From a virus (lineage: Duplodnaviria; Caudoviricetes), in the IMG/VR virus record IMGVR_UViG_3300023213_000092, positions 1 through 26,098 of that record: a stretch of DNA of 26,098 bases. One strand, 5' to 3'. Numbering within the stretch: the stretch's first letter is position 1; every line of letters begins with the position of its first letter. The position numbers and the translations under genes were made by a program. Under the pieces are notes generated by a model, which was not told the DNA's origin, made no database searches, and saw nothing but the letters and a program-made list of their open reading frames with translations. Shown here piece by piece: positions 6,711 through 23,122 of the stretch.

Positions 6711-7355
6711 ATGGAACGGCGTTTCCTGACGGGCCGCGAGGGCCGCGAGGTCCGCGTCGAGCAGCGCGGCAGCGATCCGCCGATCATCGCCGGCTATGGG
6801 GCGGTCTACTACGTCGCCGGCGATGCCGGGACGGAGTACGACCTGTTTGGCGACGGCACGCTGATGGAACGGCTCATGCCCGGCTGCTTTGACCGGGCCT
6901 GTCGCGAGTGCGATGTCCGGGCCCTGTTCAATCACGACCCGAATTTAATCCTCGGCCGCAACGTCGCCGGCACGATGACGCTGGCCGCCGACGCGCGCGG
7001 GCTCCGCTACGAGATTCGCGTGGACCCGGATGCACCGCTGGCCCAGGGCGTGCTCAGCGCGATTCGCCGCGGCGATGTGTCCGGCTCGTCGTTCGCCTTC
7101 ACGGTGGTCCGCGAGCAGTACGTCAAGCCTACCCAGAAGGGGCAGCCCTACGTGCGCGAGATCTACGACGTGCAGCTCTACGACGTCGGCCCAGTGGTGT
7201 ATCCGGCCTATGACGGCACCACCACGGCCGTCCGGGCCGCCGGCGACACCGCCGAGGCTCGGGCCGCCTTTGAGGCGTGGCAGAAGAGCCTGGCTGGGCA
7301 GATCACGCGCATGCAAGCCCTCGTCCGCGCCCGCTGTGCCGAGCTGGGGCTGTAA
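6711..7355 (+). CDS. HK97-family prohead protease
   Basis: IAGYGAVY, ALFNHD (catalytic His), GLRYEI, RRGDVSGSSFAF (catalytic Ser), LYDVGPVVYPAY. SD GAGGA. Confidence 0.95.
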   Translation: MERRFLTGREGREVRVEQRGSDPPIIAGYGAVYYVAGDAGTEYDLFGDGTLMERLMPGCFDRACRECDVRALFNHDPNLILGRNVAGTMTLAADARGLRYEIRVDPDAPLAQGVLSAIRRGDVSGSSFAFTVVREQYVKPTQKGQPYVREIYDVQLYDVGPVVYPAYDGTTTAVRAAGDTAEARAAFEAWQKSLAGQITRMQALVRARCAELGL

Positions 7356-7430
7356 AATTCGGCGCTGGGGTGGGACACGGAGGGCGCGCTAAACGTCTAG
7401 TGTAGGTAAAGGGGCACCGCTCCTGGCAAA

Positions 7431-7498
7431 GGCGGCCGGGCCAGTGCTCAGCCGGGGCTCATTACCCCGGTGGCCAGGGGCAGCACCTGGGGCCGACA
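7431..7498 (+). ncRNA. tRNA-like cloverleaf with CAU anticodon (non-canonical or pseudo tRNA-Met)
   Basis: Acceptor GGCGGCC/GGCCGAC (6 of 7 pairs) plus discriminator A. Mini D-arm GGGC-CAGT-GCTC. Anticodon arm CCGGGG-CTCATTA-CCCCGG. T-arm CCAGG-GGCAGCA-CCTGG. No encoded CCA. Confidence 0.72.
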
Positions 7499-7730
7499 TT
7501 GGTTATGAGCCTGGCGTCCGAGGCGGCGATAGAGCCGCGCCGGCGCCGACAATCCGACACACCCCTGCGGCATCGACGCCGACCATTCGACCGAGTCACC
7601 GCGGGGCGACGCAAGTCGTCTGCTGACCATGCAGCGGGCGTTTGCTGGCGAACAGTCCACCGGACTTTCGCCGGGAGGCGCCCGCTGTCTCTTTGGGCCA
7701 TCCCCGGCGAACAACGACCCGAGGATAGCC
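7499..7730 (+). promoter_or_regulatory. Structured leader of the major capsid gene
   Basis: GGCGAC-GCAA-GTCGTC hairpin (7605-7620). Long hairpin 7631-7688 followed by TCTCTTT. SD GAGGA at 7721. Confidence 0.5.
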
Positions 7731-9134
7731 ATGCCCGAATCTGTCAAGGCCCTCCGCGAAAAAGCCCTGCCGCTCGTCAAGCGCATCGGCGAACTCCGCG
7801 ACCTGCTCACCGATCAGCACCCCGACTTCACCGCCGAGGAGAAGGAGCAATGGGACAAGGTCAACAAGGAGTACGACGTCCTGCGGACGCGGCTGACGGT
7901 CGCGGAGCGTGCCGACGAAATCGACCGCGAGCTGCGTCAGCCGGTCGATGATGATCTGCCCATCCCCGCCAATTACGATCCGGCCCGCGAGCAGAAGAAG
8001 CGCGACAAGGACGCCAAGCACCAGCAGCGGCAGGAACGGCTGCAGGCCAAGCGCCAGCGCGAGCTGGGCTGGCTGGCCCCCTCGATCACCGAGGAGGACC
8101 GCTGCAACGCCCTGCAAGCCTGGTGCCGGGCCCAGACCGGCCGCCCGCTCAAGTGGTATCACCGCCATGCCTGCCGCAAGACGGGCATGAACCCCAAGCG
8201 CCGCGAGATCGGCCTGGGGCTGCCGCGCGATTACCGCTCCGTCCTCAAGATGGCCGCCGAGCACCGTGCCCTGGCCCTCAACGCCAATGCCGCCGCCGGC
8301 TACACGGTGCCGGAAGGGTTCGTCAACAACCTGGAGATCGCCCTGCTCGCCTACGCCGAGGTCCGCAAATGGGCCACGGTCATGCGCACGGCCAGCGGTC
8401 AGGACCTGCCCTGGCCGACGGTCAACGATACGACCAACAAGGGCGCCATCCTCGTCGAGAACGCCACGGTCGGCCAGCAGGACGTGACGTTCCAGCAGGT
8501 CGTGTTCCACGCCTACAAGTACACGTCCAAGATGGTGCTCGTGCCGGTCGAATTGATGGAGGACTCGGCCTTTGACCTGGCGGCGACCCTGGGCCAGCTC
8601 CTGGGCATCCGCATCGGCCGTATCCAGGCCGACCATTTCACCACCGGCAGCGGGGCCAGCCAGCCGCAGGGCTATCTCATCGGGGCGACGTCCGGCGTGA
8701 CGGCGGCCAGCTCGACGGCGATCGGCGGCGACGACTTGTACAAGCTCAAGCACTCGGTCGATCCGGCCTATCGCTCGCAGCCGGGCGTCGGCTGGACGTT
8801 CCATGATTTGATCTTGCAGTCGATCAAGCTGCTCAAGGACGGCTCCGGCCGTTACCTGTGGCAGTCCGGACTGGCCGGCGGCGTTCCCGACACCATCGAT
8901 GGCGACCCCTTCTACATCAACCAGTCGATGGCCTCGACGATCGCCAGCGGCAACAAGACGGTCGTCTACGGCGCGCTCAAGAAGTACGTCGTCCGCGACG
9001 TGTCGCAGGTCCGCATGCGGCGGCTGGTCGAGCGCTTCGCTGACAGCGATCAGGAAGCGTTCCTGATGTTCATGCGTTCGGACGCGAACTTGCTCGACGC
9101 CGGTACGCACCCGATCAAGTACCTCGTGCACTAA
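7731..9134 (+). CDS. Major capsid protein, HK97 fold, with N-terminal scaffold (delta) domain
   Basis: Coiled-coil N-terminus, AGYTVPEGF, VPVELMEDSAFDL, GSGASQPQG, LKDGSGRYLW, LVERFA. SD before ATG 7731. Confidence 0.96.
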   Translation: MPESVKALREKALPLVKRIGELRDLLTDQHPDFTAEEKEQWDKVNKEYDVLRTRLTVAERADEIDRELRQPVDDDLPIPANYDPAREQKKRDKDAKHQQRQERLQAKRQRELGWLAPSITEEDRCNALQAWCRAQTGRPLKWYHRHACRKTGMNPKRREIGLGLPRDYRSVLKMAAEHRALALNANAAAGYTVPEGFVNNLEIALLAYAEVRKWATVMRTASGQDLPWPTVNDTTNKGAILVENATVGQQDVTFQQVVFHAYKYTSKMVLVPVELMEDSAFDLAATLGQLLGIRIGRIQADHFTTGSGASQPQGYLIGATSGVTAASSTAIGGDDLYKLKHSVDPAYRSQPGVGWTFHDLILQSIKLLKDGSGRYLWQSGLAGGVPDTIDGDPFYINQSMASTIASGNKTVVYGALKKYVVRDVSQVRMRRLVERFADSDQEAFLMFMRSDANLLDAGTHPIKYLVH

Positions 9135-14399: not shown

Positions 14400-16046
14400 A
14401 TGGCAACGATTGCGAGCTTGGCGGTGCAACTGGTGGCGGACCCTAGCAAGTTCGTCGCCGGCCTGTCCGTCGCCGAGAAGGCCATGCAGCGCATCGGCAG
14501 AAGTGGTTTCAACCCCGGCACCTGGGCGAAGCTCGCTTCCGGCGGACTCGGCAAGCTGCAAGGCATTGTCGATACGGTTCTCGGCCCGATCAAATCCCTC
14601 CTCGGCAGCATTCCCCTTATTGGCGGCGCGCTGGCTTCCTTTCCGACCTCGGTTGGCGGTTTCGCCGAATGGTTCAAGGAAGGGTCGGAGCGCATCAACG
14701 AGATGCGCATCACCTCCGACAAGCTCGGCATCGACATCGAGCGCATGGCCGGTTTTATGCTCGCCGCGGGGCCAGCGTCGGAGTCGATGGCCACGGCGAT
14801 GCTCCGGCTCCAAAAGGAGTTGGGTGAGTCCGCCGCGAAGGGCGAGGGAACTGAGGTCACGTTCGCTCGTCTTGGGCTGAACGCCAAGCAGCTCGCTCAG
14901 ATGCCGCTCGATCAGGCGTTCGGTCAGATCGCCGACGCGATCAACCGTCTCGACAATCAGGCAGCCAAGGGCGTAGCCGTGTTCTCGATCTTCGGCAAGC
15001 GCGGGGCGGAGTTGCTGCCCATGCTCGCCCGCGGCTCGAAGGGGCTGGAGGACTTTCAGCAGAAGGCCAGGGAGATGGGCCTCGCCGTCTCGGCGGTTGA
15101 CGCCGAGAACGTGCGGCAGGCGACAATGGCGATGAAGAGCCTTAATCGCTGGATGACGGCGGCCAAACAATCGGTCGCTGTGGAGATGTCTCCCGTTGTC
15201 GTCGCCCTGGCGGAGCAGTTCGGACAGGCGGGCGTCAATGCCAAGAGCGTCGGCCAATTCGCACTGACGGCGGCGAAGGTGATTGCCTATGGCGGCGCGG
15301 TGGCCGTCGAGGCGTGGAAAGGGTTGCAGATCGTCTGGACGATGCTCAAGGTCGGCTTTCAGGCGATGGTCGCGGTCTTCGTGGAGCAGCTCGGTGTGAT
15401 GCTCCAAGCTGGCGCCCTATTGCCCGACGCGATGGGCGGCGACAAGTTCCGCCAAGCTGCCGAATCGGTCAAATCCTTCAGTCAGGGGATCTGGCAGGAC
15501 ATCGACGCGACGCGCAGGGAGTTCCTGGACAAGTGGGCCAATGACAAAAGCGCCTTCCAGTCCGTTGATGAGTTTTTTGCTGGCGTCGCGCGCAAGGTCG
15601 AGGATGCCAAGAAACGCATGGCCGAGGGGCCGAAGGGAAAGGACGGCAACTGGGAACGGCTCTTCGAGCTGTTCGAGCGCGGCCAGAAGGTGACTCAGGA
15701 GTTTCGTTCGCCGCTGGAGAAAATCCAGGACCGCATCGGCGAGCTAAACGAGCTGCTCAACGCCGGCGTCATCCAGTGGGACACCTACGCCAGAGCGATC
15801 GGGGCCGCGACTGCTGAGCTGGTGAAAGCCTCGCAGACCGAATTCAAGATGGCCGGCAGCGCCGACTTCGGCTCGCAAGAAGCGTTCACGGCGATCGCGA
15901 AAGCCCAGTTCGGCAACCAGTCGCAGAGCGGCGTCGATGCGTTGAAGGACGGCATCAAGCAGCAGATTGAGATCCAGAAGCAGCAGAAGCAACGGCTCGA
16001 TGACATCGCGATCGCAGTGCGCGGGGGACTCTTCCAACTGGCTTAA
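14400..16046 (+). CDS. Tape measure protein (548 aa)
   Basis: MATIASLAVQLVAD start, IFGKRGAELLPML, helical A/G-rich, RSPLEK...LNELL..G.I.WDTY. Follows the GT chaperone. Confidence 0.92.
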   Translation: MATIASLAVQLVADPSKFVAGLSVAEKAMQRIGRSGFNPGTWAKLASGGLGKLQGIVDTVLGPIKSLLGSIPLIGGALASFPTSVGGFAEWFKEGSERINEMRITSDKLGIDIERMAGFMLAAGPASESMATAMLRLQKELGESAAKGEGTEVTFARLGLNAKQLAQMPLDQAFGQIADAINRLDNQAAKGVAVFSIFGKRGAELLPMLARGSKGLEDFQQKAREMGLAVSAVDAENVRQATMAMKSLNRWMTAAKQSVAVEMSPVVVALAEQFGQAGVNAKSVGQFALTAAKVIAYGGAVAVEAWKGLQIVWTMLKVGFQAMVAVFVEQLGVMLQAGALLPDAMGGDKFRQAAESVKSFSQGIWQDIDATRREFLDKWANDKSAFQSVDEFFAGVARKVEDAKKRMAEGPKGKDGNWERLFELFERGQKVTQEFRSPLEKIQDRIGELNELLNAGVIQWDTYARAIGAATAELVKASQTEFKMAGSADFGSQEAFTAIAKAQFGNQSQSGVDALKDGIKQQIEIQKQQKQRLDDIAIAVRGGLFQLA

Positions 16047-22985: not shown

Positions 22986-23064
22986 AACACCCAAAATGAG
23001 CGGCCGCCGCGACGGCGCGCAGCTGCCCGACGATGCCGCGCTCGCGGCTGTCCCTTTCGAGGAG

Positions 23065-23098
23065 GCCCGCTGGTCCCTAAGGACCAGCGGGCTTTTTT
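23065..23098 (+). terminator. Intrinsic terminator
   Basis: GCCCGCTGGTCC-CTAA-GGACCAGCGGGC followed by TTTTTT. Confidence 0.93.
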
Positions 23099-23122
23099 AT
23101 TGCGATGAGGGGAAAGCTGGGA

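Follow-up and report, generated by a model that had tools for sequence, protein, structure and literature searches.

The locus considered here raises the question of why a phage should carry, in the spacer between the genes for its prohead protease and its major capsid protein, what looks like a shrunken initiator tRNA followed by a complement of a tRNA anticodon arm. The window, meaning the whole stretch of DNA analysed (26,098 nt), is a linear virus record of 26 kb that is 57% complete (IMGVR_UViG_3300023213_000092), and it encodes an HK97-type head module with terminase, portal, protease and capsid genes, along with a large serine recombinase. The host is probably a planctomycete, since both of the capsid homologues for which an organism is named (2 of the 120 listed) are Planctomycetota, the names given being Planctomycetota for one and Pirellulales for the other. 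The protease-capsid spacer is 375 nt long, contains both the tRNA-like element and its trailer, and is laid out with its flanking genes as follows.

6711 to 7355, plus strand: prohead serine protease gene (Pfam Peptidase_S78, E 7e-35), the upstream boundary of the spacer.
7359 to 7549, plus strand: block holding the tRNA-like element and the trailer, missing in the nearest relatives.
7398 to 7403, plus strand: TAGTGT, a hexamer that resembles a -10 site but lacks a TTG -35, and a possible displaced capsid promoter.
7431 to 7498, plus strand: compact tRNA-fMet-like cloverleaf of 68 nt, predicted to take the cloverleaf fold when excised, with a homologue in L140.
7501 to 7516, plus strand: antisense trailer, a 16-nt complement of nt 25-40 of tRNA(CAU), absent from homologues.
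7547 to 7730, plus strand: separate and conserved capsid leader, common to L081, L082, L083, L085, L090, L091, L092 and L002.
7731 to 9134, plus strand: HK97-type major capsid gene (Pfam Phage_capsid, E 1.6e-49).

The edges of the block form a 15-nt inverted repeat (7359-7373/7535-7549, 80%). The protease-capsid spacer of L082 holds a tape-measure-like gene (1169-2761; PHROG 9483, tested in L082 alone), and similar spacers of 1.9 kb are seen in the closest relatives L085, L090 and L091, an unusual gene order; in the window the tape-measure-like gene lies at 14400-16046. In L083 two minus-strand tRNA-like units (1034-1096 and 2067-2129), with D and T arms and without a normal anticodon arm, score 48 and 39 bits against the Rfam tRNA model; the protease-capsid spacer there has an inserted DNA methyltransferase gene with direct repeats on either side, and the two units lie within these repeats. 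Elsewhere in the window there is a 53-nt direct repeat of 94% identity (25404-25456/26046-26098), the second copy of which reaches the contig end, and a strong G+C hairpin followed by a T run (23056-23101) just upstream of the serine recombinase gene, which is a likely intrinsic terminator and gave weak Rfam sRNA matches.

As to what the element is, its excised sequence (7433-7497) is predicted to fold into a cloverleaf (P 0.79), with an acceptor core at 7433-7437/7491-7495, the discriminator at A7498 and three arms.

7438 to 7449, plus strand: short D-like hairpin of 4 bp with a 4-nt loop, carrying a G·U in the window and a G-C in L140.
7451 to 7471, plus strand: anticodon arm, identical in L140 over 7451-7467.
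7474 to 7490, plus strand: T-like arm of 5 bp with a 7-nt loop without the T-loop consensus, showing two two-sided changes relative to L140.

The D-like hairpin stacks straight onto the acceptor stem without a linker, and it lacks the D-loop GG; both that GG and the T-loop consensus are absent from the window element and from L140 and present in the cellular tRNA-fMets of L300 and L309. CCA is encoded in neither copy, the 1:72 pair is G-C in the window and U-A in L140, A73 is found in both, and the window copy has a G·A at 2:71. The anticodon loop, CUCAUUA (7458-7464), presents CAU at 7460-7462 and a U at position 37 (7463), and is abutted by three consecutive G-C pairs (7455-7457/7465-7467), so that the hallmark of initiator tRNAs as given in the available part of PMC2528185 is present together with CAU. 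A purine at position 37 is described as strictly conserved (PMC7812866, in excerpt), and because A37 makes a base triple in free tRNA-fMet (PMC2528185, same excerpt), U37 should alter the anticodon loop of the element. On the window ARAGORN makes no tRNA call for the element and Rfam leaves it below the RF00005 tRNA score; on 7340-7760 no Rfam match to a T-box or, up to E 10, to C4/CI antisense RNA was found, and the folding z-scores of the element are just -0.6 to -1.3. No published description of it was found in the literature searched; viral tRNA-like candidates are reported in PMC10690425 (10,006 candidate viral RNAs), none of them named as Met in the available text.

The case that such a structure has been maintained comes from L140. 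Searches with blastn and nhmmer of 261 loci, gathered by protease or capsid similarity, returned L140 as the one non-self match to the block below E 0.01 (E 9e-7), a locus found via capsid relatives and not via the loop pattern. Its capsid is 40% identical to that of the window, and its copy of the element follows the capsid gene, with a G+C terminator-like hairpin on one side and a ribosome-binding site on the other. The two elements agree in 49 of 70 columns (70% identity), the stems having diverged; the longest identical run, 17 nt, falls over the anticodon arm, which is partly selected for in that BLAST favours matches with a long identical run. Among the 21 pairs there are four two-sided and three one-sided changes and one broken pair, leaving 41 of 42 cells paired against just 36-55% in slid controls; the covariation score was reached by 37 of 500 shuffles, which is near the limit for two rows. 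Both copies also share the 4-bp D hairpin without a linker, the non-consensus T loop, G2, C3-G70 and A73. The alignment demonstrates, at the level of the predicted fold and of an exact initiator-type anticodon arm, that the element has been kept in two distant phages.

Applied to 200 sources (the window plus 199 loci out of the 261, the rest being mostly duplicates), a model built from these two copies (R1) gave no further close member, and a stricter mimic pattern returned L140's contig only. The element is likewise missing from the protease-capsid spacers of the other 128 of 129 relatives and from L140's own, and when the spacer was compared with INPHARED phages by distant BLAST, nothing but short chance matches came up (best E 0.4). 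R1 had 0 matches in 141 genomes from the phylum to which the Gemmatimonadota bin G002 belongs, a search without a positive control and hence uninformative; a U37 tRNA pattern gave one spurious match in 61 genomes of that phylum.

Its wider kin are phage tRNA-Met genes. Scans with a U37-arm pattern returned 16 and 19 stretches, mostly unrelated matches, from which the frequency of U37, being part of the pattern, is not measurable. Full-length phage tRNA-Met genes with the same core arm occur in L272, L274, L276, L283 (initiator-type, beside an integrase) and L295 (initiator-type), and L290 has a copy with a shrunken D arm and the U37 arm; a model made from the element ranks L290 and the U37 tRNAs at the top of 40 sources, with the tRNAs at E 0.003-0.02. 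The best explanation of these sequence relationships is that the element derives from a phage initiator-type tRNA-Met and has become compact and non-canonical; a tRNA-fMet-derived element, in line with the mimic of the initial annotation, is supported, as is its conservation. It may be added that in L272, L274 and L276 (about 1973-2048) a full U37 tRNA-Met(CAU) precedes a small gene and the portal gene, with a terminator-like late leader upstream and a start codon following after about 10 nt, that L268 and L275 (1974-2061) have long-arm tRNA-Met(CAU) in tRNA arrays, and that tRNA-Met(CAU) genes with U37 are found again and again in phages unrelated to one another, among them large A+T-rich phages where the tRNA has a long variable arm.

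The reading that we favour, with about even confidence, is that the element is a compact tRNA-fMet mimic with a working anticodon arm, accompanied by a private inverted tRNA fragment. The mimic may be seen as a small cassette that moves between late-operon spacers, because it lies before the capsid gene in the window and after it in L140 and is missing from the spacers of other relatives; it would be transcribed with the abundant capsid message, then trimmed out, and would not act as a translating tRNA. The T/D elbow and CCA of a tRNA are the parts read by RNase P, the elbow is needed for elongation, and the anticodon arm is not needed for tRNA processing. Because the arm has been kept exactly and the elbow lost, a role of the arm as the ligand of a protein that reads tRNA-fMet would be favoured; the likeliest target would be an fMet-cutting anticodon nuclease of the VapC type, with the mimic as its decoy, and MetRS or the 30S P site would be less likely ones. 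VapC toxins cut the anticodon stem-loop of tRNA-fMet (PMC4705866 and PMC8522696, both in excerpt), and the available part of PMC10264068 describes anticodon-loop changes as frequent in phage tRNAs and linked to nuclease resistance. The same part has phages of enterobacteria generally avoiding the encoding of tRNA-fMet, which counts against the favoured reading, and both the single close homologue and the predicted probability of at most 0.001 for the cloverleaf in the precursor count against the mimic reading.

Among the alternatives, the cloverleaf may be a signal for RNase P or 3' nuclease processing, or for stability, that punctuates the late message, with the trailer incidental; we consider this unlikely. 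It is favoured by the position of the units of L140, L272, L274 and L276, each of which has a terminator-like hairpin on one side and a ribosome-binding site on the other, by the compensatory change that keeps the stems, and by the two units without a normal anticodon arm in the L083 spacer, although these are on the opposite strand. The parts that RNase P reads, the T/D elbow and CCA, are however precisely those that were lost, and the anticodon arm is what stays invariant. Slightly less probable again is a functionless element, a decaying tRNA pseudogene beside an inverted repeat that is a scar or due to chance. The want of an ARAGORN or Rfam call, the low z-scores and the patchy occurrence would all suit such a relic, as would the ease with which an inverted repeat to some part of the element arises (p 0.26), but 20 of 21 pairs are kept at 70% identity, with non-canonical D and T loops in common, between phages whose capsids are 40% identical, and independent decay is not expected to yield such shared pairs and loops.

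The trailer has a different history. The initial annotation had pointed out that GGCTCATTACC (7456-7466) and GGTTATGAGCC (7501-7511) are complementary at 10 of 11 positions, with A7505-U7506-G7507 set against the CAU at 7460-7462, and that the complement starts 3 nt after the discriminator; all of this stands, the placing of the discriminator at A7498 being in agreement with the 7-bp acceptor register of L140. The extended pairing that it described is also present in the sequence (7451-7453/7513-7515, with one G·U and one bulged G), and the 11-mer is an exact complement of three cellular tRNA-fMets from other phyla (L298, L300 and L309), matching the claim made for the usual bacterial initiator arm. 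The helix is in fact longer than first reported, with 16 contiguous bp between 7501-7516 and nt 25-40 of tRNA-fMet, including one or two G·U, whereas against its own element or the U37 relatives the longest uninterrupted helix of the trailer is 8 bp. Read on the minus strand, the trailer corresponds to part of an anticodon arm in sense orientation, identical at 16/16 positions to the arm of the phage tRNA-Met of L337 and at 15/16 to those of L300 and L309; it differs by 0-1 changes from canonical arms and by 3 from its own element.

Taken as after-the-fact probabilities, the values for a helix of 16 bp at the tRNA-fMet loop are p=6e-6 to 9e-5 within a 200-nt flank and p=0.002 to 0.024 over the whole window with both strands counted, while a complement of at least 10/11 that covers the loop has p=0.003 in the 200-nt flank and one to any 11-mer of the element p=0.26. 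The possibility that the trailer is part of a whole tRNA that has decayed on the minus strand was considered and rejected (combined p 0.14-0.16), the extension beyond the trailer having p 0.73-0.77 upstream and 0.045-0.05 downstream. A phage attachment site was rejected too, on the inverted orientation, the position in the head operon and the encoded serine recombinase. As separate observations, L323 and L363 contain a remnant of tRNA-fMet, beginning with nt 25 and with a deletion after nt 40, that has the same boundaries as the trailer and resembles an attachment-site scar, and a cellular genome has a partial copy of the tRNA-fMet anticodon arm (the region L309:1471-1495) with the full gene about 140 nt downstream of it.

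Pairing of loop and trailer, which had been put forward as a possible two-state switch, is not kept in homologues: L140 and all U37 tRNA relatives are without the trailer, an outcome that the initial annotation had itself named as refuting its proposal. The combined loop-plus-trailer pattern has 0 matches in IMG/VR viral contigs, the 11-mer is matched in 21 of 278 loci and in two copies in none, and no trailer was found near the elements of relatives in 5/5 whole records with up to 3 mismatches allowed. A scan for the free antisense 17-mer gave 51 viral stretches, 40 of them inside same-strand reading frames of 100+ codons, 4 others, and on the other strand 5 tRNA genes and a single tRNA remnant present in 2 copies; a mimic is near none of the 51. 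The distribution is best explained by a trailer that is private to one lineage and is not a conserved regulator. A private inverted fragment is suggested because the trailer is absent elsewhere and is nearer to canonical arms than to its own element, and it might have been left from a tRNA(CAU) arm by inverted duplication or, through the loop that both have in common, by recombination. Against the scar reading, decay would be expected in a scar of some age, a 16-bp match is very unlikely by chance, and the flanks have no significant similarity to a whole inverted tRNA (p 0.15).

Folding predictions suggest what the trailer may do in the precursor. With the full spacer, the loop-trailer helix has P 0.86-0.95 and the full cloverleaf P of at most 0.001, the two conformers being about 4.5 kcal/mol apart with the cloverleaf the higher; transcripts from 7406-7412 give the helix P 0.70-1.0, and in some shorter windows the anticodon stem wins over it. 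When the trailer is kept from pairing, the transcript from 7409 has the cloverleaf as its minimum-energy fold. The earlier suggestion that the trailer masks the mimic in unprocessed RNA agrees with these models, in which the predicted helix dominates and its blocking releases the cloverleaf; on the favoured reading of a mimic with a private fragment, the trailer would fold back on the mimic until 3' trimming removes it, without coupling to capsid synthesis. Pairing with host initiator tRNA or its 5' halves, likewise suggested earlier, is predicted to be feasible at a net -3 to -12 kcal/mol (-3 to -6 for intact tRNA-fMet, -5 to -12 for 5' halves), values that ignore tRNA tertiary structure, modifications and bound factors and that were obtained with tRNA-fMets other than the host's.

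From this pairing follows the rival view that the trailer was selected as a sensor that binds host tRNA-fMet, best as 5' halves, and so frees the cloverleaf, with the mimic as the output. The 16 bp that it can form with cellular tRNA-fMet, as against 8 uninterrupted bp with its own element, the predicted net binding and the emergence of the cloverleaf on blocking of the trailer in the transcript from 7409 all point this way. Nevertheless we regard it as improbable: the trailer has been found once, is neither in L140 nor near the elements in 5/5 whole records, and has no counterpart behind a mimic among the 51 viral antisense 17-mers, and the energies are subject to the simplifications just given. 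A shade more improbable is its specific form as a counter-defence switch, in which the trailer would keep the decoy folded away until tRNA-fMet 5' halves made by an anticodon nuclease anneal over 14-16 bp and release it, so that by RNA alone the phage would both sense and damp abortive infection directed at fMet.

That the conformers, or the binding of tRNA-fMet, set capsid synthesis through the leader or through an IRES-like pseudoknot is very improbable. The two conformers about 4.5 kcal/mol apart would offer the states for such control, and the block occupies the position of the capsid promoter of relatives (8/11), so that the capsid message may begin with it. Specifically, TTGnnn-(16-19)-TAnnnT stands directly before the capsid leader in 8 of the 11 relatives examined, a comparison of hand-chosen regions without a shuffle control; no such site was found in the window at 7341-7560, where the -10-like hexamer at 7398 is all that is seen, and no sigma70 site was found. 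Because relatives have the promoter-like site there and the window only this hexamer, the mimic block may have been inserted at the capsid transcript start.

The leader that follows consists of a GACAA start motif, a first hairpin, and a long hairpin (7632-7687) with a pyrimidine tail, and the capsid ribosome-binding site is GAGGA (7721-7725). The ribosome-binding site has a predicted unpaired probability of 0.19-0.21 whether the trailer is freed or blocked, and the long hairpin has P 1.0 in either state, so that the supposed coupling of capsid synthesis to tRNA-fMet finds no basis in the models. Nor does the idea of an IRES-like start at AUG 7505 hold: the AUG is in frame 2 and the capsid in frame 0, 226 nt away, and because it is out of the capsid frame such a start cannot make capsid. 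The frame opened by this AUG is arginine-rich and junk-like, with a third-position GC of 0.68 vs 0.91, and the open reading frames 7444-7626 and 7505-7951 were ruled out as genes by composition. Pairing of the loop alone amounts to 5 bp at -3.6 kcal/mol, the full helix displaces the anticodon stem, and the trailer is unconserved, all of which is against capsid control. As an observation on the leader itself, it has two-sided changes in 6 of 18 consensus pairs (in a rough alignment of eight relatives) and no Rfam match over 7547-7730, and with its terminator-like hairpin and the promoter-like site in relatives it is a candidate attenuator or capsid autoregulation motif.

We know of no half-tRNA priming in bacteria of the sort used by Hemivirus-like elements. 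The notion that the trailer is such an initiator half-tRNA primer-binding site, through which a reverse transcriptase copies and spreads the mimic, is hardly to be entertained: the helix does end at tRNA nt 40, the priming nucleotide of Ty5/copia (PMC1181622, in excerpt), and the cassette position does differ between phages, but the window and 4 related records, all incomplete, have no RVT_1 match (0/5), the element has no flanking repeats, and L140 is without the trailer. A link to a diversity-generating retroelement is likewise not supported, with no RT and no template/variable repeat pair seen.

What these readings would mean differs. Rfam does not contain the compact mimic, and ARAGORN does not detect it. 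Should it act as a decoy, a non-translating RNA route would be added to the known phage answer to tRNA nucleases; if the trailer senses tRNA-fMet halves, it would be a riboswitch-like bacterial sensor of tRNA damage, of which no description was found in the open-licence papers searched; and if neither holds, the locus still warns that late operons have a family of shrunken tRNA-Met units overlooked by tRNA finders.

Set beside known systems, the element is like initiator tRNA-Met (RF00005) in its cloverleaf, three G-C pairs, C32-U33-CAU-A38, G2, C3-G70 and A73, and unlike it in its 68 nt, its 4-nt D loop without GG, the missing linker, the T loop without consensus, U37, the lack of a 1:72 mismatch, the G·A at 2:71 (window copy) and the absence of an ARAGORN or Rfam call. 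With the T-box riboswitch it shares an mRNA leader that might pair with a host tRNA anticodon. The T-box, which switches a terminator, leaves the tRNA folded and reads its CCA end and 3-4 nt of its anticodon; at this locus, in contrast, 16 bp would unwind the arm, no Rfam match is found and the downstream hairpin is predicted to stay unchanged. An anticodon-like loop with a complementary downstream codon in the same RNA also recalls pseudoknot I of the dicistrovirus IGR IRES, but the codon is out of the gene's frame and the predicted helix destroys the anticodon stem in place of a docking of the loop. The complement of an initiator-tRNA arm ending at nt 40 is like the primer-binding site of Hemivirus (Ty5, copia; PMC1181622 and PMC5371799, in excerpt), whereas this is a DNA phage, and neither a reverse transcriptase nor terminal repeats were found in the available part of its genome (57% complete). 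The nuclease-insensitive phage tRNAs of van den Berg et al. (PMC10264068), so far as the available part of that paper describes them, resemble it as RNAs derived from phage tRNAs that have an altered anticodon-loop base, the tRNA concerned being one that VapC nucleases target; those are full and clustered tRNAs that replace host ones, whereas the element stands alone in a head operon and is unlikely to translate.
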